Source: a virus | Taxonomy: Duplodnaviria; Caudoviricetes | Reading direction: 5' to 3' (one strand) | DNA: 28,057 bases | IMG/VR virus record: IMGVR_UViG_3300012667_000118 | Location: 1-28,057 of that record | Shown: positions 565 through 25,528 of the stretch, one piece after another | How the letters are laid out: each line of letters opens with the position of its first letter | Numbering within the stretch: position 1 is the stretch's first letter | Program-made: the position numbers and the translations under genes | Notes under the pieces: generated by a model | Database searches by the model: none | What the model was told of the DNA's origin: nothing | Seen by the model: only the letters and a program-made list of their open reading frames with translations

Positions 565-570
565 TATTTA
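565..570 (-). promoter_or_regulatory. TAAATA T4-late-type promoter core for the scaffold/capsid operon
   Basis: GTTAAATAACC on minus strand, followed by perfect hairpin GAGCATAT-CCA-ATATGCTC (539-557) and RBS. Confidence 0.7.
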
Positions 571-595
571 ACTCAATTGAGTAAATCAGTCTAAA

Positions 596-781
596 TTATC
601 GCCTATTACGGCGTAATTTGCTTGTGGGTGCTGGTGCGGCTTGCTTTTGTGCAATACGCATACCTTTGTTAAAACTGGGACTGGTATTGGATGGTTTAGA
701 GCCCCCGCTATTTGCATAACGATATCCGGCTCTATGACCTCCACAGTCCTTAGTGCATCTGCTGCCAAAGAACTTTGCCAT
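596..781 (-). CDS. Small basic hypothetical protein (61 aa, CxxxCxxH motif)
   Basis: ORF track; tightly coupled to the upstream small ORF; K/R-rich C-terminus. Confidence 0.7.
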   Translation of the reverse strand: MAKFFGSRCTKDCGGHRAGYRYANSGGSKPSNTSPSFNKGMRIAQKQAAPAPTSKLRRNRR

Positions 782-782
782 A

Positions 783-932
783 TTACTTCTTCCTTTTCTT
801 AGCAGCGGCTTGACTGGCTTTGATTGCCTGTGCTTGTGCTACTGCCTGTTTACGAGTAGGATATACTTTCCCAGTTGTGCCATACTGCCAGCCTGCTCCT
901 CCACGGGGGCCTTTTGCTTTGTGTATTGGCAT
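783..932 (-). CDS. Small basic protein (49 aa)
   Basis: Hand-translated MPIHKAKGPRGGAGWQYGTTGKVYPTRKQAVAQAQAIKASQAAAKKRKK; 1-nt gaps to both neighbours. Confidence 0.75.
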   Translation of the reverse strand: MPIHKAKGPRGGAGWQYGTTGKVYPTRKQAVAQAQAIKASQAAAKKRKK

Positions 933-933
933 A

Positions 934-999
934 TTACTTTCTCGGTGGCTTCTTACGATTCTTAGCAGTTCTGCTGCCTCTTAGTGGTAGTGCTCTCAT
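934..999 (-). CDS. Very small basic peptide (21 aa)
   Basis: MRALPLRGSRTAKNRKKPPRK; GGAGG RBS inside the portal 3' end; fills the gap between portal and the 49-aa ORF. Confidence 0.55.
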   Translation of the reverse strand: MRALPLRGSRTAKNRKKPPRK

Positions 1000-1000
1000 T

Positions 1001-2482
1001 TTAGTCCTCCTTATGTTGCCAGCCTTGTGCGGCTAAGTCTAAATGTTCTTGTTCGGTGCGTGCAATAAGTTCTTCGCCAGTATCTGGATTATACATAGTG
1101 TGTGCTTCAAACAATGGTGCTGCTGGTAGTGTGGCTGCTTCTGTTGCCACATATTCTGGCATAATGAGATCGGCATCTTCGCCCAACAGTTCAATGATCT
1201 CGTGATCAATAACTTGTAATACACGTGGATCAGTTGCCGCGGATTTAGCAGTGGCTAATTGTTGGAACTCACGTTGAACATCACGCACGTTGAATGAGCC
1301 TGGGTAATCAATCTCACCTTCCCACTCACGTCCTTGATACATACCGAATATCTTCCATAACTGTTCTTCAGCCAATTCCATATTGTCTGCTTTTGAAGCC
1401 AATCGTGCATTAAGCAAACTGAATTCAACTTCCATTGCTACGCCGGATAGAGTGCGTGTTTCGGTGCCACGCACTCCACCAGTGTTGCTTAAGCGATCAA
1501 TTGCTTCAACCAACTGTTGAATACTGGCGTGGATAGTGGCCACATTGCCCCCACCGTGTTCCAATACATATGGCTTTAGTCCTGGATCCATATTGTCCGG
1601 CATCATAATAACTGCACCGGCACCCGATCCATATTGTGTGTCCGGTGTGACTACTAAACTCGGATGTCCGTCTAAACGAATGCTCTGTTCAATTTCACTG
1701 TTATAGTTGTAGATAAGACGTTGGATATCAGCAATATCATTGATATCGCTAACGCCAATACCCTTTACAATGCTACGCTTGTTGTATGCGATAACAGCGG
1801 GTATCATACCGAGACCGTTTTGTTCGGTTAATATTAAATCCGCTTCTTTATTTTGATCATCCATAACCCAAGTATTGATCAACTCCTTAGTCCACTCACG
1901 AACTGTAGTCGACTTATCTACAACTTCTTCAATGTATTTGAAATAGGTTAGTTCGTAAGCACCATTTGGCATACGAGTCCATTTCCAATCCATTACTGCA
2001 AGTGGGGTTAGTAAGTTCATATATGGTCTTACACCCATTGCTTGTTCTTCACCCAATGTAGTCAATGCTAGATTAGGTTTGGTCATTAACATCCAGCAGT
2101 GTCCAAACACACTTGACCAAATGGATACATCTTTCATAAATGCATCTAATGAACGTCCATCGAAGTCACAATCCATTAGGAATGATTCCACATCCGGCTG
2201 TCCTTGCCACATACCGAACTCACGATCGGGTTCTTCACGGAATAGGTAACTGATATAAACTCCAATAACACTTTGGCAGTGATTATCTAATGGAGTTGTG
2301 CGAAGTCTTTGATAGTATTCGTTATCTGTTTCAAGTTGATAGCGAGTGAGATAACCTTCTTTGCGATAGTCTTCGCCACCCACATAACTGTCCAATAGGA
2401 ATGCCCAACGATCTCTATTGCGTTGATATTCTCTATTGGTTACTGCGATATATTTGTAGTCGTCCGTTAATGTTTGATTCAT
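1001..2482 (-). CDS. Portal protein (SPP1-like)
   Basis: 493 aa directly after terL; LGMIPAV..YN...G.SDI.DIADIQ and SGVA...F..LN motifs typical of SPP1-type portals. Confidence 0.88.
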   Translation of the reverse strand: MNQTLTDDYKYIAVTNREYQRNRDRWAFLLDSYVGGEDYRKEGYLTRYQLETDNEYYQRLRTTPLDNHCQSVIGVYISYLFREEPDREFGMWQGQPDVESFLMDCDFDGRSLDAFMKDVSIWSSVFGHCWMLMTKPNLALTTLGEEQAMGVRPYMNLLTPLAVMDWKWTRMPNGAYELTYFKYIEEVVDKSTTVREWTKELINTWVMDDQNKEADLILTEQNGLGMIPAVIAYNKRSIVKGIGVSDINDIADIQRLIYNYNSEIEQSIRLDGHPSLVVTPDTQYGSGAGAVIMMPDNMDPGLKPYVLEHGGGNVATIHASIQQLVEAIDRLSNTGGVRGTETRTLSGVAMEVEFSLLNARLASKADNMELAEEQLWKIFGMYQGREWEGEIDYPGSFNVRDVQREFQQLATAKSAATDPRVLQVIDHEIIELLGEDADLIMPEYVATEAATLPAAPLFEAHTMYNPDTGEELIARTEQEHLDLAAQGWQHKED

Positions 2483-2491
2483 AGTTTGTCC

Positions 2492-3727
2492 TTAAGTGGT
2501 AGCCAATTGATGGCCCCATCGTTGTGGTATATATGGTGCCGTTTCTTTACGCACCGGATATAGATAATCAACCATATAACGCAATGCATCGTTCATATGA
2601 TCAAATCCGCTTTCTTTGTCCGGGATGCTAGTCCCTTCTTTGTATGTTTGTTTCTCCAAACATTCTATTACATATTTACAGTTTGGTGCTATATGTAATG
2701 TGGTTATACCCGTAGAACTACGCAGTTTGGCATTGACAGCATTGATACCATCTCTAACTGCATTGTGTGCGTGGGGTGCTTTTACAGTAAATCCAGCGTT
2801 ACGGAGTATAGTGTGATCAGTTTTGCCCCCACTCTTACTGCTTCGTGCAGCACCTGCTGGATCGGGATAGACTACAATACGCTGAGTAGGATATCTTGCT
2901 TTGATCTCATCTACCATTTCATCAGTGTTGCTGCCGAAGATCTTTATCTCATCAATAAGGTGTAAGTGTTCGCCATTCTTTACTGCAACTACTGCTGACA
3001 TTGGGTTAATGTTAAAGTCCATTCCAATGTGTATTTCGTGCGGGACACCGAAGTCATACTGTTTAACATTATAGAAGCGTTCAAATGCGTAGAATATTCT
3101 GCCACTGAATGTTTCAAATGTAGCACGAAACTCTTGATTAAATGTGCGTTCATCCAATGATCTACGTGCTGCTTCGATTTCTTCTATGCTGACATTGCCA
3201 CCTTGCTCTGTAGTATATTGGAATGCTGCCCATTCTTCTGGGTATTCAGCAGCCATATCATATAGGTCTTTAGCCCAGTTCATACCCTTGGGTGTGCCAA
3301 TAAACAGTGCCTTGCCCATAGTATCAGCAAGTGTTGGACGCAGTGTTTCAAACCAGGCTTCTGGATCAATGTCCGCAAACTCATCCATTACTAGGAAGTC
3401 AAGTCCAACACCACGAAGACTGTCATAGTTATCAGCACCTTTGAGTGAGATTGTTGATCCGTTCTTTAGTTCAAATGATAGGCTTGTTTCGTTTATCTTT
3501 GACACCCAGCGTAATGATTGCAACTTCTTACGCAGTTTCTTAAACACAATCATCTTGGCTTGCTTATACGTGGGGGCCACATACCAAACTTCCTTTTCGG
3601 GTATGCTGGCTGCTTTACACAACTCCCTAACGGATAAGTGTGTTTTGCCAAAGCGACGCCCAGCAATAACTACACGGAATCGTTGCTGGGCTTGTGTTAT
3701 GGCTAACTGTGGGCTACTTAAAGGCAT
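2492..3727 (-). CDS. terL: Terminase large subunit
   Basis: Walker A AGRRFGKT, Walker B FLVMDE, GTPKG coupling motif, nuclease GMDFN and DHMNDALRY; likely start is ATG 3727 overlapping the upstream stop (TAATG). Confidence 0.95.
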   Translation of the reverse strand: MPLSSPQLAITQAQQRFRVVIAGRRFGKTHLSVRELCKAASIPEKEVWYVAPTYKQAKMIVFKKLRKKLQSLRWVSKINETSLSFELKNGSTISLKGADNYDSLRGVGLDFLVMDEFADIDPEAWFETLRPTLADTMGKALFIGTPKGMNWAKDLYDMAAEYPEEWAAFQYTTEQGGNVSIEEIEAARRSLDERTFNQEFRATFETFSGRIFYAFERFYNVKQYDFGVPHEIHIGMDFNINPMSAVVAVKNGEHLHLIDEIKIFGSNTDEMVDEIKARYPTQRIVVYPDPAGAARSSKSGGKTDHTILRNAGFTVKAPHAHNAVRDGINAVNAKLRSSTGITTLHIAPNCKYVIECLEKQTYKEGTSIPDKESGFDHMNDALRYMVDYLYPVRKETAPYIPQRWGHQLATT

Positions 3728-4554
3728 TAGATCCAAAGATTCCTATGTTGTTCTCTCAAAGTTTTAATATCACTTCCTAACTTTGATTTTATGTATTCCA
3801 TATTTTTTTTATATTTGTTATTTCTATCCAACTGTGCATTCCATTCTAATAGCCCATTAGGGTTAGCATTGGGTCCGGGGTTTTTATATTCTTTATGATG
3901 GGGATTAATTTCAAATATTGTGCTTTTGCTATGCACCATTTCTTTTAGACTTACTTGATCACATTGTGCAAACTTATACCCCTGCTGTATTAAACTACAA
4001 GCAAACTCTATATCTTCCAAAGCATCCATAGTTTCATCAAATCGCCATTCTCCAACTTGAAGAAACATCATTGTTCCTTTTTGTTCTAATTTAGGCCTAA
4101 ATGTCCAAGCGGGTTTAGTGTTCTTGGGATAGGGTGCCTGTTGAGCGTTAAATGGAATAAAAGACACAATACCCTGTTCTTGTGCTTGGCAGCATACTTG
4201 TTCTAATTCTACTACGAATCTCTGACTTTCTAGTTTGTCAAAATACAATGTAGCATCGTTATCCCAAATGCCAATCCATTCTTCTTTAGGATAAAAGTTT
4301 AATACTTGATTGCGGGCTTGTGCGGCATTGCTACGAGGGATTTTAACAACATCATCATATTCACTATAATCGTCAAATAACGAATTACGGTTATCGTGTT
4401 GAGTAAAGCAACGAAACTTATGACCTGCTTTTTTCCAATGATAAAAGTCTTCTTGTTGTCTAAGAAAATATTTGGTTCTATAATTGAATAGCGTATCTCC
4501 ACGACTATTAACCGTTGTATTATCACCGCGATAATCAATAATGTTAATCCACAT
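3727..4554 (-). CDS. Putative GT-A fold glycosyltransferase (GREB1/TAGT-like)
   Basis: ARNQVL..Y...WIGIWDND (DxD-like) and EDIEF motifs; visibly AT-richer than flanks. Confidence 0.55.
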   Translation of the reverse strand: MWINIIDYRGDNTTVNSRGDTLFNYRTKYFLRQQEDFYHWKKAGHKFRCFTQHDNRNSLFDDYSEYDDVVKIPRSNAAQARNQVLNFYPKEEWIGIWDNDATLYFDKLESQRFVVELEQVCCQAQEQGIVSFIPFNAQQAPYPKNTKPAWTFRPKLEQKGTMMFLQVGEWRFDETMDALEDIEFACSLIQQGYKFAQCDQVSLKEMVHSKSTIFEINPHHKEYKNPGPNANPNGLLEWNAQLDRNNKYKKNMEYIKSKLGSDIKTLREQHRNLWI

Positions 4555-5663
4555 TATTCAAACAATGTTTCAAATACTGTATTATCAACAGTGGGCTCAT
4601 CGATGACATCAACAGTTTCTTCAGTGTTCCACGCAATGATACGCTGCTCACTGATCTTGATATATTTGGCGTCTAAGTCGATACCAACATATTCGTGCCC
4701 TAATTTGGTTGCTGCCATACCGGTTGATCCACTACCGTTAAATGGGTCTAATACCTTACCATTAGGCGGGGTGATCAATGTAATCAAATACTTCATTAGT
4801 TCAACTGGTTTGACTGTGGGGTGATTGTTGCCAATAAGTTCTTTTTTATCGGTCTTAAACCCAACGTGTCTTTCTTTACGGCTGACTTTGGGGCAGTAGA
4901 AATACTTTTGATAGTCTGCGATTTCACCTAAGACATTGCTGGGATAACGGCCTGCTTCGTTTGGATTAAACTTTGTAGGTAAGTTCGACTGTTTATTGCC
5001 TTCACCAGCATTGCCAAAACTATAATTAGAATATTCAACTTGTGTGTCGGGATTAATATCACCGACTTCTAAAGGAATACGACTGGCATCAATGTTCAAT
5101 GCACCGGTACCCCACTGCTGCACATTCTTAACAATGCTGCCTTTAATTGGCTTGCGTGCTAATGCAATGGGTTCGTGTGCTGGCTTTAGGGCTGACTTCC
5201 AACCTTCCCATTGTTGTGCTAAGGGGTCGGTGACTATTACTTCTCTTGATTCACTGTCACTGCCAAACTCTCCATCGCCCCCAACACGAGGAACACCGAA
5301 CTTATATTTCTTACTTTCCTTAACACCTAACTGTTTTTGTATTTGTTTCCCAATATCTTGTGCCTTGGGGAATCCACTTGAATAGATCCACATTATCTGA
5401 TCACGGATTTCAAAGCCCGCCTTCTCAAGTGTAATAGCCAAGTGATGATATGTTCGTGCTGCTGAAAATGCAAGTATGTGACCACCTGGCTTTAATACTC
5501 TTAGACACTCTTGATAAGTCTCAAGTGCTCCAGTATTAGCATCCCAATCTTTACCTAAAAAGTCAATGCCATAAGGCGGGTCCGTGACTATACTGTCAAA
5601 GTGGTTATCGGGGTATGTTTTCAGCACATCTATATTGTTGCCGGTGTGTAATTGATATTTCAT
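4554..5663 (-). CDS. DNA methyltransferase, N4-C/N6-A beta class
   Basis: Catalytic DPPY near the N-terminus; HPTVKP and SAM-binding LDPFNGSGSTG near the C-terminus. Confidence 0.93.
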   Translation of the reverse strand: MKYQLHTGNNIDVLKTYPDNHFDSIVTDPPYGIDFLGKDWDANTGALETYQECLRVLKPGGHILAFSAARTYHHLAITLEKAGFEIRDQIMWIYSSGFPKAQDIGKQIQKQLGVKESKKYKFGVPRVGGDGEFGSDSESREVIVTDPLAQQWEGWKSALKPAHEPIALARKPIKGSIVKNVQQWGTGALNIDASRIPLEVGDINPDTQVEYSNYSFGNAGEGNKQSNLPTKFNPNEAGRYPSNVLGEIADYQKYFYCPKVSRKERHVGFKTDKKELIGNNHPTVKPVELMKYLITLITPPNGKVLDPFNGSGSTGMAATKLGHEYVGIDLDAKYIKISEQRIIAWNTEETVDVIDEPTVDNTVFETLFE

Positions 5664-5696
5664 TTTGTTTCCTTTGTAGCAAATATCTTTGGGAGT

Positions 5697-6095
5697 TTAT
5701 TCATCGTCACTCCACGGTAACGGTGTATTGGCTTCACTATCAGTCGGGTTGTCACTCATACCCAATATATTTTTGGCTAAAAATATCTGTATAGTAGCAT
5801 TGTTATTGTTAATGGCATTATGAATCATAGCACGCCTTAGGCTTTGCTTTAAGTTCATTTTGCCTTTTGTGAGTTCTTGCTTAAAGTTGTAACCTAAAGT
5901 AGAATCATCAATACCTAAATATTCGGATATTTCACTATTCTTAAAGCCCATTGAGGCTAACTTTTCAACTTCTTTTGGGTCAATAACTTTCTTATCACGA
6001 CCCACTTCTATGCCCTTGTAAACGGCTTCTACAAGTTGCTTAGGTTTATTGCCAGTCTTTTTTCGAGGCGTGGGATTATCGGTATGTTCTTCCAT
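5697..6095 (-). CDS. terS: Terminase small subunit (HTH), probably leaderless
   Basis: HTH VEKLASMGFKNSEISEYLGIDDSTL and IFLAKNILG motif; upstream of terL; likely start ATG 6095, 4 nt after TAAATA. Confidence 0.75.
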   Translation of the reverse strand: MEEHTDNPTPRKKTGNKPKQLVEAVYKGIEVGRDKKVIDPKEVEKLASMGFKNSEISEYLGIDDSTLGYNFKQELTKGKMNLKQSLRRAMIHNAINNNNATIQIFLAKNILGMSDNPTDSEANTPLPWSDDE

Positions 6096-6099
6096 ACCG

Positions 6100-6105
6100 T
6101 ATTTA
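6100..6105 (-). promoter_or_regulatory. TAAATA promoter core for the packaging operon
   Basis: GTTAAATACGGTATG, directly after tandem terminators. Confidence 0.72.
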
Positions 6106-6110
6106 ACGGC

Positions 6111-6140
6111 CAAAAGAAAAGCCCCGTATTAAAGAGGCTT
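6111..6140 (-). terminator. Intrinsic terminator
   Basis: AAGCCTC-TTTAATAC-GGGGCTT then TTCTTTTG. Confidence 0.75.
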
Positions 6141-6149
6141 ATTATGACT

Positions 6150-6188
6150 CAAAAGAAAAGCCCGACTGTGCAGAGTGTGGGCTTTTCT
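6150..6188 (-). terminator. Intrinsic terminator
   Basis: AGAAAAGCCC...GGGCTTTTCTTTTG. Confidence 0.75.
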
Positions 6189-6210
6189 AAACTCAGTGGG
6201 ACGTCCAAAT

Positions 6211-6348
6211 CTAACTGAGTTTTAACACTAAAAATGTGTATATGGGACTACCTTCACGAACGAACACTACATCAAAGTGTGCATCATAACTCCAATCACT
6301 TTCATTAAACTGATCTAACTTGATGTTATTATCAATCACTTCGCTCAT
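6211..6348 (-). CDS. Small hypothetical protein (45 aa)
   Basis: Hand-translated MSEVIDNNIKLDQFNESDWSYDAHFDVVFVREGSPIYTFLVLKLS; overlaps the upstream stop and ends before the terminators. Confidence 0.6.
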   Translation of the reverse strand: MSEVIDNNIKLDQFNESDWSYDAHFDVVFVREGSPIYTFLVLKLS

Positions 6349-6595
6349 TGAGTATCCGGTCATTTAATTGTTCCAATAATTGTTTTGCTGATTCAAGTTG
6401 TTCAATTGTTTGCAGTCTTTCTCGTTCTCTATCAATATCTTGTCTAATACGTGCAATTGCTGCTGTAATTTCTGCTCCATCATAGTTTGTATATACTTCG
6501 ATCATTGCTTGATACACTGCTTCAAGTCGAGCCCTTGAATGATCTTTAGTTAGAACGGGGCTTGCTGCAAGTTGTCGATCAAATAGTTTTTTCAT
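6332..6595 (-). CDS. Hypothetical coiled-coil protein (87 aa)
   Basis: ORF track; coupled to neighbours. Confidence 0.7.
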   Translation of the reverse strand: MKKLFDRQLAASPVLTKDHSRARLEAVYQAMIEVYTNYDGAEITAAIARIRQDIDRERERLQTIEQLESAKQLLEQLNDRILNERSD

Positions 6596-6743
6596 TAAAA
6601 ATTAAATTAGGATTAGTTTTGCGTCCAACTATTGCAAGTCTTTGTAAGCGTTCTGTGGCTGTGCTACCTTTCAGTATCCATTGCTTCAAAACAATCATAT
6701 CCTTTGTTTTTGGTAAGTCTGCTCGTAGTTGTTGTAATGTCAT
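6579..6743 (-). CDS. Small hypothetical protein (54 aa)
   Basis: Hand-translated MTLQQLRADLPKTKDMIVLKQWILKGSTATERLQRLAIVGRKTNPNLIFNEKTI; AGGAG RBS. Confidence 0.7.
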   Translation of the reverse strand: MTLQQLRADLPKTKDMIVLKQWILKGSTATERLQRLAIVGRKTNPNLIFNEKTI

Positions 6744-6788
6744 TAATATCTCCTAATATGTTAGTTTAACACGTTATGAGCGAATGCA

Positions 6789-6815
6789 CAAAAGAAAAGG
6801 GCGAATTAACACCCT
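6789..6815 (-). terminator. Intrinsic terminator
   Basis: AGGGTG-TTAATT-CGCCCT then TTTCTTTTG. Confidence 0.7.
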
Positions 6816-6830
6816 CGTCCCATCCCACGA

Positions 6831-7016
6831 TTATTCTAAAGTGATTTCTCTAATTGCAGTATTGCCAAACACGCCCAATGTGCGGAGTATATCGAACATT
6901 TGCTTAGCCTGATCTGGGTCACTGAATGTAATCTCTGCTGTCTTGCGACCCAGCATTAACATTTTAATAGTATTCTTTTCAGTTGAGGGTGTTGTTGTTT
7001 TTGTCGATGTTTTCAT
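6831..7016 (-). CDS. Hypothetical protein (61 aa)
   Basis: ORF track; GAGGT RBS upstream. Confidence 0.65.
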   Translation of the reverse strand: MKTSTKTTTPSTEKNTIKMLMLGRKTAEITFSDPDQAKQMFDILRTLGVFGNTAIREITLE

Positions 7017-7248
7017 ATTGTCTTGCTACCTCTAGTAATCTTAATCTGTCGTGTAATTGATTGATGACGGTTTCTTGTTTATTGACCATTTCAACCAATT
7101 GATTGAATTCAGTTGTTAATTGAACTATAAACTGTGTTCGCTTGTCCAAGTGTTCAGTTATTTGCAGTATATTGCGATGTGCTGACATTATCAGCGTTTC
7201 GTGTTGTTGTAATAGATCGTATGGATCGAATTCTTCTCCATCAAACAT
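6979..7248 (-). CDS. Hypothetical coiled-coil protein
   Basis: Heptad-rich; likely start ATG 7248 (MFDGEEFDPY) overlapping the upstream stop. Confidence 0.7.
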   Translation of the reverse strand: MFDGEEFDPYDLLQQHETLIMSAHRNILQITEHLDKRTQFIVQLTTEFNQLVEMVNKQETVINQLHDRLRLLEVARQYENIDKNNNTLN

Positions 7249-7633
7249 ATTCAAATCCGATCATAAACTTTAGAGTGTGACAGTCATCAAATACATTACC
7301 CAATATGTGTGAGATATTTTGCAATCCGTCCATTTGCTTGTCTGTGAGATCTCTTTGTTCCCCGAACATTGTATTGGCCAATACACCTGCTACAAATGAT
7401 GCCGGGGTGTTTTGTCCGCTGCGTCCTTTGGGTAGTGTTTCAGTGCGTTTGTTCCACCATTGATTGAATACCCATTTACTATCTGGATTACGGTCAATGG
7501 ATATCTCACCCATCTTCACTGTCCAACGCACTAACTCTGTTTGTAGGAATGTCATATCTTCTTCACTAATTGTTCTATAGTTAGTGTTGGCAGCAGTATG
7601 CTTGGGGATAAACTTAATTGTCTTGTTTGGCAT
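7241..7633 (-). CDS. Hypothetical protein (~130 aa)
   Basis: Likely start ATG 7633 (MPNKTIKF) with AAGGA RBS. Confidence 0.7.
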   Translation of the reverse strand: MPNKTIKFIPKHTAANTNYRTISEEDMTFLQTELVRWTVKMGEISIDRNPDSKWVFNQWWNKRTETLPKGRSGQNTPASFVAGVLANTMFGEQRDLTDKQMDGLQNISHILGNVFDDCHTLKFMIGFEYV

Positions 7634-8443: not shown

Positions 8444-8465
8444 CTAAGTTCTCCTTCTACAATAT

Positions 8466-8471
8466 TATTTA
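8466..8471 (-). promoter_or_regulatory. TAAATA promoter core for the HNH operon
   Basis: GCATAAATAATATTGTAGAAGGAGAACTTAGATG. Confidence 0.7.
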
Positions 8472-16998: not shown

Positions 16999-19900
16999 TT
17001 ATGTAATTATAGGAGAAGTTGTAAATCGAATAATATTAATATCAGTTATTGCTGGCACAGTGCCAGTAACTGCACGACTATCCATAACAAAATCTTCACT
17101 GGTTAAAACATAATAAGTAGTCGAAGGATCAAAATTATAAGTTGGATTTATAATTAATGAATTTCCACTAATGACTAATAGATTTAATGTTTTATCTCTT
17201 GTATAATTTGTATCACCTTTAATTTCTTGAATTAACGTTCCTGAGGCATTATAGATACTAATAGTGCTACCTTCTACTCCTAATAATGGAGGAAAGTTAA
17301 AGTTTAATGTTATAGAACTATTAACATTAGTAGAAGTCGTATCTGGAGTCACAGTAAAAGATTGATATGCAAATGGAGTAGATACATCTGGAGTTACCGT
17401 TTCCATTGTAAACAAATTATTTGAAGAATATGGCAATTGAGCACTAGATCCTGATAACTGAAATGTAAAACAATCTTGTTCTATTTTATAACTAAAAATT
17501 CCAGCATCTGCTGTAATATAATATTGTTTTCCATCATTTGTTATTCCATAATCTCCAAGTTTTCCAAAAGTTAATAATCCAGATCCGGCCCTGCCTAATA
17601 CATATCCTCCTTGACCACCAGGATTACCTGTTTCTGTAGGTCGTCCAACAATCCCAGTGAATGTTCCAGAAGATGCTGGAATAGTAGCAACTACATTATT
17701 ACTTGGATATTCATTAATTCTAATATTTCCAGAACCTGTTGCATTAAATCCTTTAGTAGAAAGATCTGCTGCTCGAATAGATAATGTTATATTTGTATTT
17801 GTAGTTTGAGTTCCGAATGATGGAGTTGCTGCCATATACGTTACTCCCATTGTAGCAGTCGTAGAATATGTTGCAGTAGATGTCACTGAATAAGTTGATG
17901 TAGTTGCAATTGATTCAGTTTTAAAATTCCACGGAGTTGTAAATGGAGTAAGTGTTTTAGATAAATCTGCTCTATATTTGTTACAATATGTTACAAATCC
18001 TCGATCTGCAATAATATAATAGTCAGTGCCAGGTTCTCTAGGAAAAAATGGAATTTCGATATAATCATTATTAATAATTAATTCGGAAACATTTAATGTT
18101 TGAACTAATGTTCCATTAGATCTGTATAAAGAAATAGTTCCTTCTCCAGATTGAAATGGTCCGTATAATTTAATAGGAACAAAACCGCTTCCGGTATATA
18201 TATTTTGTGTATTAAATTTTATAAAATACGATCCGATAGTATATGCACCTATTGAATTATCAGTAGGTAAAAATGAATCTATTGATAGATATTGATCATA
18301 ATATGTAAAAATCTGATCAATACTATCATAAGTTCTTTCATTGGGGAATGTTAAAAATAACGATACGGCTCCGGTATCTGTTGGGACTTGTGGAGTTTTA
18401 ACAGTAATATAATCTTGAGTCACTGTAATAATTGTTGCAGTATAACCTCCCATTTTTACTGATACTATATCTTGTAAAAAATTACCAAAAATTGTTGCAG
18501 TAGTTCCTCCTCCTGTTGGTCCAGTGTTTGGGTAGATACTGCTAATAACTTTAGTTCTTGGAGCATTGCCACCTGCAACTTGCGAATTAATAATAACATC
18601 AATTAACGGTCCATTATTTTCAACACGAACTGAATCGCCAATAAAGTTTAATGTAGAAGTAACTGTTGTTAATTCAATTCCTTCATCTTGAATTGCAATT
18701 TGTGCATTTCCTGAAACAACTAATGTTCCTTCCTTAGCCTGGCCTGCTAGATCGATCCCTGTAAGATCTTTAAATGTTTCATTCCAACTTTCAAAAAAAC
18801 TGCCAGTGCTAAAGACCTTTTGATAAATTCCATCAACGCCTTTAAGCAAATCAACAACTGCTAATGCAGTAACAATATTGCCTAATGCATCAACTGATTG
18901 TGTATTGGGACCAATAGCCTGTGTGACCTGTGTTGGGTTAAAATTAGTGAATCCACTTACTGCACTGTATGGTCCAGTTGTGGCACTGTTCTTACCGCGT
19001 GTTTTAATAACAAAGTCACTTGCACTTAGGTTGTCGTATTCTAAACGAACTGGATCGCTTGATGCAAAGATACCACCGTTGATCGGCTTAACTTCGCCCA
19101 ATATACGATATGTTCTGTTGTCTTCGGTCAGTTGCACATCATTGCTGATCCAAAACTCCATAACTTCAACAACACCAGTTGGTGCTAATGATTCTACTAA
19201 GATACCTGGACGTGCATCAATTTCAAATTTAGTGACTTGTGGAGTGCCCGGAATGCCAATGCTGCCAATAGTGATAATGCCAGTTTCATCTGTGCGAGTA
19301 TAACGATACAAATCAGTTGTGGAGTAAATGCTGGCATTATATTCTAACGCTGAAATCTCCATTAACAATGCTCCGTCATCTTCTTGCACTTCGGTAATAG
19401 TTATGATACGGAATACTTTGTTGTTAAAGTTAAAGCGGCTGTTGGTCACTGTGACTAAGTCACCTGCTTTCAAGTTGATATAACTGTAGTCTGTTCTAAA
19501 GTTGATAACGAGATCAATACGGCTTTGCTTTAACTCCATAAAGCCCAGTAACTGTGCCTGCACTGGTTCGTTCAGCACATCGTAACTGAGATCTAAACTG
19601 TTGTCAAATTCATTTGAATTGCGATCACCGCTGGGTATTTCAATAGTAACAAAGTCCGGATTATCACGCAAATCTCTGTGTGGGAATTGCACATTGGTGC
19701 TGTTGTATAAGTCATACAGTCCGGTACCATTAATGCCAATAGATCCGATAATGTTGCTGTCATTAAAACTTGCAATGCTTGTGCCAGTTTGGTTGATTAC
19801 AACACCCCATTTGCCTTCGTGTGTGTCATAACTAAGCCACGAACCTGCGGCACTGCAAAGACGGTCAATATTGCTTAAAACTGTGTTTTTTGTGTCAATT

Positions 19901-20010
19901 AATCCGTTAATTTGATATCTATTTGCTAAAATTTGACCGATTCCTGCCGTCTCATCAGTAAAGGTAACTGTGCCAGTTGAATAGGAGTTAAGTTGTGCTA
20001 ATGTCTTCAT
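16999..20010 (-). CDS. Central tail-tip protein (gpJ-like C-terminal part) with IPT/TIG and Ig-like domains
   Basis: RYQINGLIDT, GDLVTVT...VFRI..I.E and EYNASIY motifs; ISSIYPNTGPTGGGT IPT/TIG; LIINP.......TTYYVL Ig-like. Confidence 0.75.
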   Translation of the reverse strand: MKTLAQLNSYSTGTVTFTDETAGIGQILANRYQINGLIDTKNTVLSNIDRLCSAAGSWLSYDTHEGKWGVVINQTGTSIASFNDSNIIGSIGINGTGLYDLYNSTNVQFPHRDLRDNPDFVTIEIPSGDRNSNEFDNSLDLSYDVLNEPVQAQLLGFMELKQSRIDLVINFRTDYSYINLKAGDLVTVTNSRFNFNNKVFRIITITEVQEDDGALLMEISALEYNASIYSTTDLYRYTRTDETGIITIGSIGIPGTPQVTKFEIDARPGILVESLAPTGVVEVMEFWISNDVQLTEDNRTYRILGEVKPINGGIFASSDPVRLEYDNLSASDFVIKTRGKNSATTGPYSAVSGFTNFNPTQVTQAIGPNTQSVDALGNIVTALAVVDLLKGVDGIYQKVFSTGSFFESWNETFKDLTGIDLAGQAKEGTLVVSGNAQIAIQDEGIELTTVTSTLNFIGDSVRVENNGPLIDVIINSQVAGGNAPRTKVISSIYPNTGPTGGGTTATIFGNFLQDIVSVKMGGYTATIITVTQDYITVKTPQVPTDTGAVSLFLTFPNERTYDSIDQIFTYYDQYLSIDSFLPTDNSIGAYTIGSYFIKFNTQNIYTGSGFVPIKLYGPFQSGEGTISLYRSNGTLVQTLNVSELIINNDYIEIPFFPREPGTDYYIIADRGFVTYCNKYRADLSKTLTPFTTPWNFKTESIATTSTYSVTSTATYSTTATMGVTYMAATPSFGTQTTNTNITLSIRAADLSTKGFNATGSGNIRINEYPSNNVVATIPASSGTFTGIVGRPTETGNPGGQGGYVLGRAGSGLLTFGKLGDYGITNDGKQYYITADAGIFSYKIEQDCFTFQLSGSSAQLPYSSNNLFTMETVTPDVSTPFAYQSFTVTPDTTSTNVNSSITLNFNFPPLLGVEGSTISIYNASGTLIQEIKGDTNYTRDKTLNLLVISGNSLIINPTYNFDPSTTYYVLTSEDFVMDSRAVTGTVPAITDINIIRFTTSPIIT

Positions 20011-20762
20011 TGTGATAAAATCTCCGCTGCTGGAATACCCGCTCCATATCGTTCGTTGGTCATATAATCATACAAGCAATCACCGGGTAGTTTCATTGTA
20101 TTGTCTATGTGGAACAACATATTGGCTAACCCAGTGACGTTCTTGTCTTTGTTGTAATTAACTTCTACAACTGCAAACACTAGGTCATCCATTGTGTGAG
20201 TTGTTGATGTCCAACCTGGAATAATGCTGTAGGCTGCTGTGGTGTTGGGTGTTGTGTAGTTTTCAACAGTTGCTGGTGTTGCACTGGAGCCTTTGTAGCA
20301 CCATACTTTGACCAAGTCCTTGATGCTGCGATCAATTGTGCCATTGCGATCCAATGTATATTGTGCAGTAATGCCATCATCCGCAAATACAATGCGTTGA
20401 TCATTCCAGTAGATGTCTTTAAATGTAAAATCACTGGCTTGATTGTCACTGAGTTTAGTGCCTGTCTTTTCGCAAAGTGTCAAGCAATAGTGCATTCGTT
20501 TGTTGCTGTTGCTCATAACAGCATCGGTAATGTTGCCCCCAAAGTAAGCAGCACCATACAGCACTGGAATCTTAGTATCAGTGTTTGGAGCAATTTGTAG
20601 TCGCACACCATAATCAGTTTGCTGTGCGTCCTTGTCCTTTTCAATACTTTTGGAGATGCGTGTGACCACATATCCAATAGCCACAGTTTTAAGCAGTGCG
20701 GCACCAGTGCTGCTGCCACTTATCCACGAGCCGAATGTCTTTAAATTGTCTAAAAAACTCAT
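20007..20762 (-). CDS. Tail-tip protein (gpJ-like N-terminal part)
   Basis: IPVLYG and PGDCLYDYMTNERYGAG motifs. Confidence 0.7.
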   Translation of the reverse strand: MSFLDNLKTFGSWISGSSTGAALLKTVAIGYVVTRISKSIEKDKDAQQTDYGVRLQIAPNTDTKIPVLYGAAYFGGNITDAVMSNSNKRMHYCLTLCEKTGTKLSDNQASDFTFKDIYWNDQRIVFADDGITAQYTLDRNGTIDRSIKDLVKVWCYKGSSATPATVENYTTPNTTAAYSIIPGWTSTTHTMDDLVFAVVEVNYNKDKNVTGLANMLFHIDNTMKLPGDCLYDYMTNERYGAGIPAAEILSQ

Positions 20763-21337
20763 ACTGGATATCCAAAGTTAAAGTTACTCTTTGCGAGACT
20801 TGGAACTCTGTCCATTGATTGATCGTTGGGATAAAATGTCTTTTGATCAATTGGGTTTGTTCTACGGCCCGAAACTTTCTTGGTTAACATATCAACTACG
20901 CTTGTGGCAGTCATTGTTAATGTAATTGTTCCAGTATCTGAACCCATCTCTAAATCGTCTGATATGTCAAAATTATTGACTACCCCTTGAAACTTGCCCG
21001 CGGGGTTACCTACGATATTTAATAGTTCCCCCGTAATAGGGTTGAAAAAGGCACGATAAACCTTCAAACTGGATCCTTTGATCTTGTTGTTGAGTATGTC
21101 GTTGATGTTTAATGGTGAGATGCCCGATATGCTCATAGTGAGTTCTTCGGAAGTGGCACGCAAGTTATTGGTAGTGTTGCTCATTGACAACAACTGTCCC
21201 AATCCACTGTATGTTGTTCCCCCAAAAGTCAATGACTTGTGATAGTCACTGAATGTCAACACTTGATAACTGGGTATGTCTAAACGCACAAACAAGTTGG
21301 TCTGTATTTGATCATATGCGGATAAGTCCAACGCCAT
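20759..21337 (-). CDS. Tail-tip/hub protein (minor tail L-like)
   Basis: Y.GLGQLL...L.ISGI...GRRTN..DQ...YPND pattern; likely start ATG 21337 (TAATG overlap). Confidence 0.7.
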   Translation of the reverse strand: MALDLSAYDQIQTNLFVRLDIPSYQVLTFSDYHKSLTFGGTTYSGLGQLLSMSNTTNNLRATSEELTMSISGISPLNINDILNNKIKGSSLKVYRAFFNPITGELLNIVGNPAGKFQGVVNNFDISDDLEMGSDTGTITLTMTATSVVDMLTKKVSGRRTNPIDQKTFYPNDQSMDRVPSLAKSNFNFGYPV

Positions 21338-21948
21338 TATAGTGCCTCCTGAAACACAAATGCTCCATCCCACTGCACTTGATCACGGGCGAAAATTGTC
21401 CAGTTGGGGAACTCAACACAAATGACATTCCAAATAACTGATTGCCCCACTCGCAATACATAACTGCCAGCAGCCTCTCTAACGGGTCTATGCAGTGTGA
21501 TCAAGTTCTCATTAAAAGGAACATCATTGACCACAGTATAAACACCAGCAGTGCCCAACTGAATAAAGTCACCTGAACGAAAGCGGAATCCTGATGACAG
21601 TGTAGCACCACTAGAGATAGTGACTGTGTTGCCACTTGTAAAATTTACACCGATGGCCGATACATTGGTCAAGTTGCCTTGATAGCCACTTAGCCAAGTT
21701 AAGTTTGGATGATTGATTTGAACTTGGCCCACAGTGACTTTATCCAATGCTTCCATACGCTCAATTAATGGGCGATATACTGACCATTTGGGCCCACTCG
21801 GTGGCACCACAGTAAATTGCCAAGCCTGTCCGCCTAGGCTGGTGCTTTTAACAGTGCCATCACGGGCGATAGTCTGTGCCACATTCTTACGCTTACTAAT
21901 TGAAATACTTTCGGCGTTGTCAAATACAGTTTGAAATGCTGTAGTCAT
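21337..21948 (-). CDS. Distal tail (Dit-like) protein
   Basis: Directly after tape measure; GDFIQ and F.EAL C-terminus. Confidence 0.65.
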   Translation of the reverse strand: MTTAFQTVFDNAESISISKRKNVAQTIARDGTVKSTSLGGQAWQFTVVPPSGPKWSVYRPLIERMEALDKVTVGQVQINHPNLTWLSGYQGNLTNVSAIGVNFTSGNTVTISSGATLSSGFRFRSGDFIQLGTAGVYTVVNDVPFNENLITLHRPVREAAGSYVLRVGQSVIWNVICVEFPNWTIFARDQVQWDGAFVFQEAL

Positions 21949-21951
21949 TGC

Positions 21952-24438
21952 TTATCTCCTTGTTCCCGGGATTGACTTCCCACCTTGTGTTGCGACTGCG
22001 TGGATAAAACCTGGATCCTTTGCAATCATCTGTTTGAAACTCAATGCATCAACTGCATTGATATTGTATGTTACATTTCCGCCACCTAATGCTGAGTTTG
22101 GAATTACTGTGCCACTGCTGCTTGGGATAACCAATTCTGGACCGCGCTCTCCAACAACGTAGGGATTGCCTGCAGAGATAGGACCACCATTTGCACGGAA
22201 GCCAAGTATGCCACCTAGACTGCTTAATGCACCTAAGATAACACTGCCACCGGAACTCTTACCGCCCATCATACTGGCAAACAATTGACGGATTTGACTG
22301 CGTAATAGATCTTCAGCCATAGTGGCCAACATATCTTTCCAAGCAAACTTACCTGTCTTAGCAAGTCCAACAAGTGCATCTTCCATACTTTGTGTTGCCA
22401 CTTTGAAGATATTCTGTGCTGCCATTGCTGCATTGGTTGCATTGTCCACATACTCGTTGAATGCATCTTTCCAGCCTTGATTCCAAGTTCTGGTCTTCAT
22501 CATATTAGCAACTTGTGTATCCGAAACAAGTTTATAACGGGCTGCAATATCTTCCAAGCCTTTGGTTAATTCAGCAGCCTGGGTGGTTGTTAAATCCATT
22601 CCGTCAAATTGTGCTGCAAATGCACGACCTGCTTCTAATGCACCTTTACGGTTGTCTTCACGGATCTGTGCAATCTTCTTCTGTAATGGATCTAATCCCA
22701 TTAGGCTATCTTCAAACTTAGCATCAACTAATTTGTCACTAATACCACGAAGTGTATCCGACAGACTTACTTGACGATCAAATTGTTTAGTAATTAATTC
22801 AAGATTAGTTAAACGATCTTTTTCTTTGGCCTTTGCAACTTCTTCTAAATTAATGATTTGTGTAACACGATCAAGTTGTTGTTGATATTGTTTATCAATA
22901 CCTTTCATTGTAGAACCAAAGACTGCTGCAAATGCTGCAAATGCTGCCTTTTCTTCAGCGGTACCAACTGCTGCTGCTTTTTGCAAATCAGTATATTTGG
23001 TTTGAAGATCATTCTTCTTATTCATCCAAGCAGTTTCAACATCGGCTAATTTGCTTTGACGATTGGCTTGATCTTCTGTGAGTCCAATACTCATCATTTG
23101 TAGTGCAAGCGTTCTTGCACCCATAATGTTTTCTTGTTCGTAACCTCTTAAGATTTTATCTTGTTCAAGTCGTTGACCACGCTGTGCATCGATAATTGCT
23201 TGTTTAGCAGCAGCATTTTTTTTATCTTGTTCAGCAGCCTTGGCACGATTTGCTATTCTTGCTAAATCATTCGAATTTTCTTCATCTGATAAGAATAAGG
23301 GTTTATCTTTTGCCTTTAATCCTAAATATGCTCTTGCTTTGTCATAAAGTTCTCCAACTTTACCAATAACCCAATCTAATGTATCAAATCCGGTTAGAAT
23401 TTTAATAACATAGTTAAATGCTTCGGCTACGGTATAGATTAATCCTACTATTCCTGCAAATTTAGCAATAAATCCAATTACACCACTTAAAGCAATTGCT
23501 AACCCACCTGTTGCAGATGCAACTCCTTTAACTCCAATAGCAGCCAATACTGCACCTGTTGCAAATTCGCCGATACCAATGCCAATTAATCTTAAAAATC
23601 CCCATAGATCTTTGAATATATTAATAACTGGTGCAAACAATCTTAATAATAATCCGCCAGTTGTTGCTGCTGCAACTCCCATATCACCAATAGCAAGTGC
23701 TACCGCAGTAATAGGAGCAATGATATATTTGAAGAATACAAATGCTCCTGCAATTAATGCACCTAATTTAATTAGATTTTCAAATTGAGTAACAGTGACA
23801 TTTAAACTTTTTGCAATATCATTTAACGGCTTGATAACATTAAGCAATGCTTCTCTAAGATTTCCAAATTGAGTGTTTAAGTTTCGTTGTGCTGCGGCAG
23901 CACTTTCAATAGCGGCAGTATTCACTGTTACACCGCCCATAGTTCTGGCTACATCACGAATATCGATATCTTTGAAACTACGGCCAAGCATTTGAACAGC
24001 CAAACTGTTACGCTCACTTGAATCACCGATAGCAGCAATACCTTGAACTGTTTTCTTGAATAGATCTTCATTGCTTAATTTGCCGAGATCGCTTAATGTA
24101 ATACCAACTTTGGCCAAATCAATTTGAGCGCTTGCTGAACCTTTTTTAGCAGCATCTAAGCCTGCTACAAAGTCAATAACATCTCCGGAGGCTTTGCCTG
24201 CATCTCCGCCCAGTTTACCTACAGCCTTACTGAAACTGCTAACAGTGCCGATGCTAACTTCACTGGCTTTAGCAGCGTTTGATAATTCCAATGCAAATGC
24301 GTTAACCTGCTGAATGGCTGCACCTAATCCCAGTCCCAACAGTTGACTTTTAAGTCCGTCAAATGCTGAACTAAGTTTGGCTAAACTTCTTTCTGCTTGT
24401 GTAGTGTCGGCGGTTATTCTTAATGATGTATCTGCCAT
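21952..24438 (-). CDS. Tape measure protein
   Basis: 828 aa, Ala/Leu-rich helical, hydrophobic central segment, C-terminal RANGGP.....Y.VGERGPEL..P. Confidence 0.92.
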   Translation of the reverse strand: MADTSLRITADTTQAERSLAKLSSAFDGLKSQLLGLGLGAAIQQVNAFALELSNAAKASEVSIGTVSSFSKAVGKLGGDAGKASGDVIDFVAGLDAAKKGSASAQIDLAKVGITLSDLGKLSNEDLFKKTVQGIAAIGDSSERNSLAVQMLGRSFKDIDIRDVARTMGGVTVNTAAIESAAAAQRNLNTQFGNLREALLNVIKPLNDIAKSLNVTVTQFENLIKLGALIAGAFVFFKYIIAPITAVALAIGDMGVAAATTGGLLLRLFAPVINIFKDLWGFLRLIGIGIGEFATGAVLAAIGVKGVASATGGLAIALSGVIGFIAKFAGIVGLIYTVAEAFNYVIKILTGFDTLDWVIGKVGELYDKARAYLGLKAKDKPLFLSDEENSNDLARIANRAKAAEQDKKNAAAKQAIIDAQRGQRLEQDKILRGYEQENIMGARTLALQMMSIGLTEDQANRQSKLADVETAWMNKKNDLQTKYTDLQKAAAVGTAEEKAAFAAFAAVFGSTMKGIDKQYQQQLDRVTQIINLEEVAKAKEKDRLTNLELITKQFDRQVSLSDTLRGISDKLVDAKFEDSLMGLDPLQKKIAQIREDNRKGALEAGRAFAAQFDGMDLTTTQAAELTKGLEDIAARYKLVSDTQVANMMKTRTWNQGWKDAFNEYVDNATNAAMAAQNIFKVATQSMEDALVGLAKTGKFAWKDMLATMAEDLLRSQIRQLFASMMGGKSSGGSVILGALSSLGGILGFRANGGPISAGNPYVVGERGPELVIPSSSGTVIPNSALGGGNVTYNINAVDALSFKQMIAKDPGFIHAVATQGGKSIPGTRR

Positions 24439-24439
24439 A

Positions 24440-24778
24440 TTATTTCCTCGATATTTTCTGTATTTGTTTTGCTAACCACTGCTTAAATGGTTCAATCATA
24501 CCCTTAGGTGCTTGTCGACTCCAACCTTCATCTAATCTAACTGCATATGGATAGTTGGCTTCGATAGTGTCATTGTTAACCAGTTTGGTGCTACGGCGTG
24601 CGTTACCTGGAACATAATTCTTAGGTGGTGGACTTTTCCAAGTTTCGGGCTTACCTATCGGAGTAAGTGTCTTGAATTCAATAAGTGCATTAGTGGGTAG
24701 CATTTGCAATTGACGACGTTGCCTTTTAAGCAATTCTTCCACTTTAACATTATTGACTTTTACATCGAGTTTGATCAT
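24440..24778 (-). CDS. HK97 gp10-like tail completion protein
   Basis: TP...GNARRS...YA.RL..GWS.QAP.GM motif. Confidence 0.75.
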   Translation of the reverse strand: MIKLDVKVNNVKVEELLKRQRRQLQMLPTNALIEFKTLTPIGKPETWKSPPPKNYVPGNARRSTKLVNNDTIEANYPYAVRLDEGWSRQAPKGMIEPFKQWLAKQIQKISRK

Positions 24779-25041
24779 TTCTGTTGTTCCTTTACACGTT
24801 GAACCATTGCCAACATTTCTGCTTGTGTAAGATCTTTCTTAGCGGGAGTCTTACCATTTGCTTTTTCGTGTTGATAGTTTGACCATCGTGCTCCAACATC
24901 CAATACATAAAGATCAAATGTTGAGGAACGAGCGAGTGCTTCACTGGGTAAGCAATGATATCTTGCTGCGAGGTTGTCTAAAGTTAGAATCATTTTGATT
25001 TCACTACTTTCCCAGTCCGGAGTCTCGCCTATTACTTTCCC
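24775..25041 (-). CDS. Tail assembly chaperone, frameshifted (GT-like) extension
   Basis: The -1 frame from GGGAAAG is open (VIGETPDWESSEIK) into MILTLDNLAARYHCLPSE. Confidence 0.8.
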   Translation of the reverse strand, partial: GKVIGETPDWESSEIKMILTLDNLAARYHCLPSEALARSSTFDLYVLDVGARWSNYQHEKANGKTPAKKDLTQAEMLAMVQRVKEQQK

Positions 25042-25328
25042 AATGTTTCAGTAATCTTGGCGATTGCTGCAAGCAATAGGTTAGTAGGTAGCATTTCTTC
25101 ACCGATGATGATTTGTTTGCCCTTTTCGTCTAGAATCAATGTGCGAACACTGTCAATAATGTTGCCCACATCGCCGTCCTTGACATTGGCCAATTTCATA
25201 AAGACTTCAAGTGGTTGGCGATCCCAAGTCCAAAATTCTACAGCCTCACCGTATTCTTTTACGATTTCTGCGTCGTCTAGTGTTAGTTTGATTAGTTGCG
25301 GCTTTGCAGCCAATTGTGATAGTTTCAT
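25032..25328 (-). CDS. Tail assembly chaperone (G-like)
   Basis: Between major tail protein and tape measure; ends LGK* on a slippery heptamer. Confidence 0.82.
   Translation of the reverse strand: MKLSQLAAKPQLIKLTLDDAEIVKEYGEAVEFWTWDRQPLEVFMKLANVKDGDVGNIIDSVRTLILDEKGKQIIIGEEMLPTNLLLAAIAKITETLGK
25035..25041 (-). other. Programmed -1 ribosomal frameshift site G GGA AAG
   Basis: Same heptamer as lambda G/GT, correct phase, directly before the stop. Confidence 0.85.
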
Positions 25329-25329
25329 A

Positions 25330-25506
25330 TTATTCTCCTTTAGATCTTTTTAGAATGGTATTGGTTAACATTACCACGAAACTGAGTCTGTTCTTTGCTT
25401 TTTCTAAGTCAGCCTGGGCGCATCTTACTTCATTAGTTGCCTTGGCTGTTTCTGCCAATATACTGCGAAGCAATTCGCTGTCTGATCTTTCGTTAAAAAA
25501 CTCCAT
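25330..25506 (-). CDS. Small helical protein (58 aa)
   Basis: Hand-translated MEFFNERSDSELLRSILAETAKATNEVRCAQADLEKAKNRLSFVVMLTNTILKRSKGE. Confidence 0.7.
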   Translation of the reverse strand: MEFFNERSDSELLRSILAETAKATNEVRCAQADLEKAKNRLSFVVMLTNTILKRSKGE

Positions 25507-25522
25507 AAATCTTCTTCCTGTG

Positions 25523-25528
25523 TATTTA
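25523..25528 (-). promoter_or_regulatory. TAAATA promoter core for the tail operon
   Basis: CTTAAATACAC directly after a terminator. Confidence 0.72.

Follow-up and report, generated by a model that had tools for sequence, protein, structure and literature searches.

TAAATA boxes ahead of the virion operons of a small siphovirus-type phage suggest late transcription by a gp55-type sigma factor from a helper

Introduction

What reads the late promoters of a phage that encodes no recognisable factor for reading them? The question is raised by the IMG/VR record IMGVR_UViG_3300012667_000118, a circular phage genome of 28,002 bp, which was analysed here with its 55-nt end repeat as one stretch of 28,057 nucleotides (the window). 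All of its genes lie on the minus strand, and among them are those for a virion of its own: capsid, scaffold, portal, terminases, tape measure and fibres. A first-pass annotation, made from the letters alone, had described a complete small siphophage that is wired with T4-type late promoters and switched on as a whole by a co-infecting T4-like helper. Completeness is borne out by the end repeat and by the completeness class of the record, and library scans found a siphovirus-type tail, a tape measure and the phage's own capsid. We show that the hexamer TAAATA is strongly enriched at the starts of its operons, and we propose, with a probability of roughly 0.6, that the gp55 needed to read these boxes is obligately supplied by a co-infecting helper, so that the phage would be a virophage-like satellite virus.

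Results

TAAATA boxes in the window

The window was compared with ten records of 30-40 kb (G001-G010), five sisters that share its virion module and were found through terL (G415-G419), and phage DSL-LC06. The boxes, and the terminator and promoters that accompany them, are as follows.

565-570, minus strand: TAAATA, about 62 nt before the scaffold gene; same slot in G415-G419
6100-6105, minus strand: TAAATA, 4 nt before the terS ATG, directly after a terminator; 5-nt spacing in G415, G416 and G417
6119-6140, minus strand: intrinsic terminator between the early region and the packaging operon
8466-8471, minus strand: TAAATA, 22 nt before an HNH gene; 18-19 nt in G415, G416 and G418
8893-8921, minus strand: sigma70-like TTGAAT-17-TATACT, before open reading frame (ORF) 8661-8849 and the small early genes
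10008-10015, minus strand: TATAAATA ahead of the polymerase gene; an extended -10 element, TG-n-TATTAT, overlaps it
10249-10277, minus strand: TAAATA (10253-10258) overlapped by sigma70-like TTGCAA-17-TATAAT
10593-10598, minus strand: TAATTA variant, 5 nt before ORF 10261-10587
10902-10907, minus strand: TAAATA, 42 nt before the holin-like gene
16782-16787, minus strand: TAAATA before tail adaptor and tail-fibre genes; same slot in G415-G418
25523-25528, minus strand: TAAATA directly after the terminator at 25564-25540

The eight intergenic positions on the coding strand (565, 6100, 8466, 10008, 10253, 10902, 16782 and 25523) are those given in the first-pass annotation; its count of eight gaps has to be reduced to seven, because 10008 and 10253 share the gap 9946-10260. 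The core is TAAATA with a variable preceding base, and the full TATAAATA occurs once among the eight sites. In total the window holds 13 copies of TAAATA against 31.2 expected from dinucleotide shuffles, distributed as 8 intergenic and 3 coding on the coding strand and 0 intergenic and 2 coding on the opposite strand. Counted in this way, by strand and position against a null, the enrichment is confirmed: TAAATA ranks best of all hexamers for coding-strand intergenic enrichment (Fisher p 1e-9), and shuffling within gaps yields a mean of 1.6 copies against the 8 observed (P=0.00035). Within coding DNA the hexamer is avoided both in sense (3 vs 11.2 in synonymous-codon shuffles, P=0.007) and in antisense (2 vs 13.9, reached in 0/300 shuffles).

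Two boxes had been said to follow terminators immediately, and this holds for 6100 (terminator 6140-6119) and for 25523 (terminator 25564-25540). The TAATTA variant at 10593 is likewise present, 5 nt before an ATG, which is a leaderless spacing; in G416 the gene at the position of ORF 10261-10587 has TAAATA at 5 nt, and no protein homology between the two was detected. From its place, box 6100 would drive terS, the methylase, terL and the portal, with a terS message predicted to be leaderless; transcription from box 565 would cross the circular junction and serve the scaffold, capsid, connector and tail tube genes, and box 25523 would serve those for tail chaperones, tape measure and baseplate.

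The gap before terS (6096-6210) contains, a little upstream of the terminator at 6119-6140, a second hairpin, with a long loop and a T run; it was seen by eye and missed by the terminator scan, as was a long-loop hairpin with a T run at 10046-10095, before the polymerase promoter. At two of the eight sites the palindrome TCAATTGA, a possible operator, stands ahead of the box (565-588 and 10902-10925).

The box in related genomes

In 25 IMG/VR loci found with an alignment of the polymerase (a single-protein scan of viral contigs found none), TAAATA is the top intergenic hexamer, with 90 copies vs 92 elsewhere. The first ten relatives carry at least four different head and tail modules, and the polymerase is the sole gene common to them. 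When one test was applied to all, TAAATA was enriched upstream of genes (p<0.001) in 15/16 genomes without gp55 (27-40 kb) and in 0/5 controls, four of which are cultured phages with a related terL or capsid. Among 80 loci found through terL, an upstream box is present in 21/22 at identities of at least 60%, and the pooled TAAATA counts change with identity from 55 vs 80 (at least 60%) to 36 vs 180 (53-59%), 11 vs 246 (49-52%) and 2 vs 24 (below). DSL-LC06, of the proposed 'Nanhuiviridae' (PMC10611076), has a related head and tail module (35% identity to the window in the major capsid protein, 52% in terL) and TAAATA boxes, and gp55 was not found in it; unlike the window it has no polymerase. 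The main text of the paper that describes it never mentions promoters or satellites (PMC10611076). Other genes of these relatives include a ferritin-like gene in the podovirus-type ones (L034:3964-4395), an Hfq-like gene in G006 (L041:13229-13483), and an antirestriction gene together with an integrase in G007 (L043:652-1074).

What reads the box

The T4 late box lies at -13 to -6 and therefore places +1 five bases after the box. This matches the peak of start codons: in the 16 genomes without gp55, a start codon follows 24 boxes after 4-5 nt and 2 boxes after 7-13 nt, and none of the 14 hexamers obtained by permuting the letters exceeds 8 cases at 4-5 nt. Upstream of the box, base frequencies are flat and carry no information over 149 sites, and no -35 element is conserved. 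The T4 late promoter is described in the same terms, as a lone -10-like element read by gp55 with nothing conserved upstream (PMC7892883). The spacing thus fits the geometry of gp55, not of sigma70, and transcripts would start some 5 nt downstream. With boxes as near as 4-5 nt to start codons, the reading as an archaeal TATA box was rejected.

Two small relatives, G008 (L044:11178-11594) and L196 (4257-4913), both 35-kb phages, encode a gp55-family sigma factor (phrog_234, E 1.7e-29 and 3.1e-19, respectively). In both, gp55 lies near an endonuclease VII gene, and gp46/gp47 are not nearby. The nearest cultured match of the G008 protein is in the Ralstonia jumbo phage RsoM2USA (52.5%). The 16.6 kb of L196 contain no TAAATA; two of its upstream sites have TAAGTA instead. 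Seventy-nine other loci contain the nearest gp55s; gp46/gp47 are nearby in 74 of them, and the remaining 5 look T4-like by eye. In these loci of large phages TAAATA is again the top upstream hexamer (250 vs 458), with 18 copies at 4-5 nt. The gp55-bearing small phage L024 and the gp55-bearing large phage L089 (135 kb) have the same dataset number in their record names.

Because of the spacing, the two gp55-bearing relatives and the same box in the 79 gp55 loci, gp55 is the likely reader, and we consider it very probable that the box is a gp55-type late promoter, whose activity is predicted to depend on gp55. The late box is TATAAATA in T4 and NATAAATA in S-PM2, in a system of gp55, gp33 and gp45 (PMC2984593, PMC7892883). 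The first-pass annotation had named all three proteins as the machinery; the gp55-type box stands, and the requirement for gp33 and gp45 is dropped, because gp55 without them is reported to give basal transcription (PMC7892883) and they need not be essential.

No gp55 was recognised in the window by several approaches. The family profile phrog_234 had no match in the window, nine of G001-G010, G415-G419 and DSL-LC06 (the positive control was silent in one scan), and a profile of 115 gp55 homologs, run over six reading frames, matched only G008. In hhalign comparisons, 25 ORF families of the window reached at best a probability of 5% against gp55, compared to 99.9% for the control. The earlier statement that gp55, gp33 and gp45 are missing is therefore upheld, for gp55 by hidden Markov models and profiles and for gp33 and gp45 by library scans only. 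None of the ORFs of the window recurs in all 16 genomes with which it was compared; the most widespread early ORF (7614-8018) occurs in 9/16. ESM Atlas models of ORFs 7241-7633 and 10261-10587 were of low confidence and indicated no family. A gp55 search of 401 Burkholderiaceae genomes, run without a positive control, gave no match.

Two tiers of promoters

According to the first-pass annotation, no well-spaced sigma70 pair accompanies the boxes. This is wrong for 10253, where TTGCAA-17-TATAAT (10/12 match) overlaps the box, and doubtful for 10902, overlapped by TTAAAA-18-TATTAT (9/12 match), and for 10008. Single sigma70-like matches are weak, because their frequency over the whole region is no higher than in shuffles (55 vs 55.2). 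Across relatives, the replication gene and the small early genes are where strong sigma70-like promoters cluster. Boxes at the replication slot of the window and G415-G418 have a median sigma70 score of 9.6 (n=10) vs 1.8 for boxes of virion and lysis genes (n=22; p=7e-5), a contrast weakened by a generic sigma70 matrix, slots that were labelled by hand and slot genes that are unannotated in G415-G418. The virion, packaging and holin operons begin at TAAATA and have no convincing sigma70 match there; in two cases a terminator immediately precedes the box. That the whole genome is late-only, as had been claimed, is too strong, because the replication slot and the small early genes bear sigma70-like promoters.

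The box at 10008 is predicted to be a dual sigma70/gp55 promoter. RB49 and S-PM2 are reported to have replication genes at which an early promoter overlaps a late one (PMC2984593, PMC7892883). The replication slot, which follows the holin and Zn-ribbon genes, is exchangeable in G415-G418 and always stands behind a predicted dual promoter. It holds the polymerase in the window and unrelated ORFs of 132 or 250 amino acids in G416-G418; G415 has no clear ORF there.

The minimal polymerase and its repeat

The gene behind the dual promoter, and a repeat that accompanies it, have the following coordinates.

8902-9945, minus strand: 347-aa minimal family-A polymerase fold that lacks an exonuclease domain and has a small domain at its N terminus; D153 and H314-D315 are invariant
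8868-8909: one of two copies of a 42-nt direct repeat, lying where the polymerase gene ends; origin-like TACCCYAKTGT (read on the minus strand)
9634-9675: the other copy of this repeat, within the polymerase gene

The fold of the polymerase is predicted with a pLDDT of 93. The model shows a family-A palm with catalytic aspartates and no 3'-5' exonuclease, and by fold and description it was likened to TV-Pol and divPolA2, for which family-A palm and fingers, no exonuclease and an extra N-terminal domain are described (PMC11348598, PMC10061031); unlike for TV-Pol, no D5/SF3 helicase partner was recognised in the window. Among the Foldseek matches listed all are DNA polymerases, and VIA-align gave a Z score of 11.8 against the best DNA polymerase and 10.2 against T7 RNA polymerase. 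No useful sequence match was found in the PDB. The protein is a probable replication initiator. The repeat core TACCCYAKTGT is found in 62/109 polymerase loci, and 1.25 Mb of gp55 loci contain a single copy; it is therefore a candidate origin or priming site.

The polymerase family is large (429 homologs). It had no match in cultured phages (tblastn with three family members), plasmids or E. coli, and in a class-wide sample it was found only in G011 (1/400 scored). The polymerase is missing from DSL-LC06 and G415-G419, yet all six have retained the boxes, whose positions in G415-G419 are orthologous; the polymerase is therefore not the reader. A homolog in a fragment of a T4-like phage (L070:12734-14179) lies downstream of gp55, gp47, gp46 and endonuclease VII. 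In a tree made by a quick method G008 and L070 join on long branches, and no direction of polymerase transfer is claimed for that reason.

Lysis, gene flow and chromosomal islands

An endolysin was recognised in 1/16 genomes without gp55 (G006) and in G008, and is annotated in 4/5 controls; the scans covered 263/317 cluster representatives and 60/73 new ORFs of G415-G419. Seven endolysin baits found nothing beyond their source genomes. Gene flow with jumbo phages is suggested, beside the polymerase homolog near gp55 in the T4-like fragment L070, by an 87-aa gene of G419 (L309:12881-13141), with a homolog in G007 and missing from the window, which matches only jumbo phages of 284-490 kb (14/14 records). 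Among cultured phages its matches are confined to jumbo phages, namely the PA5oct/Paride group, Atu_ph07 and Phosso.

Two of the 401 Burkholderiaceae chromosomes carry low-GC islands with an integrase, the polymerase, a second recombinase and defence-type cargo. One, in G357 (C33:95919-113543), spans 17.6 kb between direct repeats; the other is L029. Both keep three orthologous TAAATA boxes, two of them before the polymerase gene, and no virion genes were seen in them. Their contents further include DUF6641 and, variably, TIR, an ABC ATPase and a large restriction-modification-like ORF. The islands give a hint of a betaproteobacterial host. A 5.8-kb contig in a Legionella bin (L028) was not taken as host evidence. 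An integrase is present in G007 and the two islands, and not in the window.

Gene content of the window

The ORFs of the window were scanned with Pfam, PHROGs and NCBIfam (30, 39 and 30 ORFs, respectively). The modules are listed below; several tail and connector genes are named from position and homology to annotated DSL-LC06 genes.

1001-6095, minus strand: packaging operon with terS, DNA methyltransferase, a 275-aa protein without family, terL and portal (library scans)
6211-8849, minus strand: small early genes including HNH (8015-8443) and HNH-like (7614-8018) genes; none is gp55-like and none is common to all relatives without gp55
10617-10859, minus strand: holin-like protein, in a genome without a detected endolysin
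10949-16727, minus strand: tail fibre module with collagen-like repeats, a LamG domain and a glycine-rich tip (library scans)
16999-26948, minus strand: siphovirus tail and connector genes (hub, distal tail, tape measure at 21952-24438, chaperones, tube, adaptors)
26960-27832, minus strand: major capsid protein

The scans recognised terminases, portal, scaffold, capsid, connectors, tape measure, baseplate, collagen and LamG fibres, as well as a holin-like protein, a methyltransferase and HNH nucleases. In the same scans of the window no sigma factor, gp33, gp45, integrase, repressor, helicase or endolysin was found, and no primase, single-stranded DNA-binding protein or antiterminator was recognised; no tRNA genes were found. 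About a dozen ORFs match no family. Matches of the HNH and small tail-associated genes were broad and uninformative.

The 275-aa orphan between methyltransferase and terL (3727-4554) has a DxD motif and no family or homolog was found for it; from the DxD pattern we take it to be possibly a glycosyltransferase. Short related pieces in the contigs from four DNA runs of freshwater or lake origin cover 27-28/30 bins of positions 1-20000. A low-GC part (32-34%) of the baseplate hub gene, at 17000-19000, is almost uncovered in the four runs and is likely a swapped receptor-binding module.

Discussion

A model of helper-dependent late expression

We propose the following scheme. The virion, packaging and holin operons, which start at TAAATA, would be read by a gp55-family sigma, with transcripts beginning about 5 nt downstream, as the spacing and the relatives suggest. 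At the replication slot, overlapping sigma70 and gp55 promoters are predicted, and DNA could therefore be copied or held before a helper arrives. The absence of gp55 from 16 genomes suggests that it would be supplied in trans to the host RNA polymerase. Lysis might be borrowed from the helper too. The helper would be a large T4-like or jumbo phage, less often a small gp55-carrying sister phage.

Several observations weigh against this reading. The case for helper dependence rests on the non-detection of one gene. No integrase or repressor was found in the window, which leaves waiting for a helper without a recognised mechanism; a family of 429 polymerase homologs is demanding for an obligate co-infector, and because genes on one strand are combined with sigma70-like promoters, some autonomy through read-through is conceivable. 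G009 fails the enrichment test (1 vs 8, p=0.2), and depletion of TAAATA alone is not specific, because the control MW202484 is also depleted overall (0.47 of expected) without upstream enrichment. Genomes and loci are related, and pooled p-values therefore overstate their independence. Endolysins may have been missed by the scans. Five jumbo genomes contain the polymerase in 0/5 cases, and the window shares only collagen-repeat DNA with 1/5. The G357 island is not enriched in TAAATA (6 vs 11.7 expected), and the boxes retained in the islands count for little because the flanking DNA is conserved anyway.

Alternative readings

Could the boxes be used facultatively, in an autonomous cycle run by sigma70 with read-through or antitermination, so that they keep or boost late expression under takeover by a T4-like phage? 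The single coding strand, the sigma70-like promoters at 10277-10249, 10008 and 8921-8893, the large family and the missing integrase or waiting mechanism would all agree with this. However, terminators stand directly before terS and the tail chaperones and no antiterminator was recognised; a read-through message would translate terS poorly, because terS is predicted to be leaderless and has no ribosome-binding site; and an endolysin was recognised in one genome of 16. We therefore consider facultative use unlikely.

A diverged sigma factor or activator among the small early ORFs would make the phage autonomous like G008. That small phages can run gp55-type transcription is seen in G008 and L196, and the dozen ORFs without family, with two low-confidence Atlas models among them, leave room for such a reader. 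On the other hand, gp55 is easily detected where present, while the ORF families of the window do not exceed 5% in hhalign; no ORF is common to all genomes without gp55, and the most widespread one (7614-8018) itself lies behind TAAATA. Moreover, unrelated virion modules all keep the exact box TAAATA, whereas TAAGTA is seen in L196, which encodes a gp55 itself. An own reader thus appears quite unlikely.

A factor encoded by the host, either an unusual sigma or a gp55 on a resident element, is still less probable. The early promoters look like ordinary sigma70 promoters, and TAAATA at the leaderless spacing would lack the A-11/T-7 pattern of sigma70. In addition, TAAATA occurs 5 times in 62.7 kb of G357 host DNA vs 4.5 expected, and the Burkholderiaceae search, run without its control, returned no gp55.

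That the polymerase is a minimal single-subunit RNA polymerase reading TAAATA, as its Z score against T7 RNA polymerase, its place as the sole gene common to the first 11 genomes and the suggestion that divPolA2 may be an RNA polymerase (PMC11348598) might indicate, is largely refuted, since DSL-LC06 and G415-G419 keep the boxes without it, G008 and L196 carry both it and gp55, and it travels with a two-copy origin-like motif.

Comparison with known systems

Obligate supply of gp55 by a helper, the reading that we prefer, has partial parallels in several known systems. With T4-family late transcription the window shares a single -10-like box with the same core letters and nothing conserved at -35; unlike T4-like phages, it is a 28-kb siphovirus-type phage in which gp55, gp33, gp45, the T4 core replisome and a contractile tail were not found. 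An analogy is offered by virophages (Sputnik, Mavirus, Guarani), which are described as carrying the late promoter of their helper upstream of their own genes (PMC6723459); Sputnik encodes TV-Pol (PMC2579912). Like the window they have their own capsid and some replication genes. They differ in their eukaryotic hosts and virus lineage, and their dependence was shown in culture whereas here it is deduced.

Among bacterial satellite viruses with their own encapsidation genes are MiniFlayer and MulchRoom of Streptomyces. MiniFlayer is reported to have its own capsid and tail fibre, to lack a lysogeny module and to need co-entry (PMC10690885). Unlike the window, they have no primase or replicase genes, and the MulchRoom tail matches that of its helper (PMC10690885). 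The window has a minimal PolA-fold gene and an origin-like repeat, its virion set looks complete, and the dependence suggested for it is transcriptional; the word "promoter" is absent from the main text of the MiniFlayer paper (PMC10690885).

In Vibrio cholerae, expression of PLE follows the transcriptional progress of ICP1, and the element is integrated and borrows virions (PMC13060381). PLE, PICI, cf-PICI, PICMI and P4 resemble the window in an activation tied to the programme of the helper, and the Burkholderiaceae islands resemble such elements; they are integrated and borrow capsids or tails, whereas the window has no integrase and encodes both. The first-pass annotation was right that the window differs from P4, PICI and PLE; it is not without precedent, given MiniFlayer and the virophages with helper late promoters. 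A literature search that included few subscription papers and no supplements found no published small phage dependent on the gp55 of a helper.

Implications

More broadly, and tentatively, we envisage a widespread, polyphyletic freshwater guild of small tailed phages and islands for which helper gp55 would serve as both infection sensor and transcription engine, while host sigma70 would provide for DNA replication and the helper for lysis; in some lineages, capture of gp55 and endonuclease VII would have restored independence. If helper dependence is true, many ordinary-looking, complete small freshwater phages would be hyperparasites of large phages, and programs that recognise satellites by their lack of capsid or tail genes would overlook them. 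Transcription would be a third kind of dependence for bacterial satellites, beside structure and replication. The box would provide a sequence signature for counting such phages, and the dependence would help explain why no cultured phage matches the polymerase family. These phages would then be bacterial counterparts of virophages, recognisable by promoter sequence alone.

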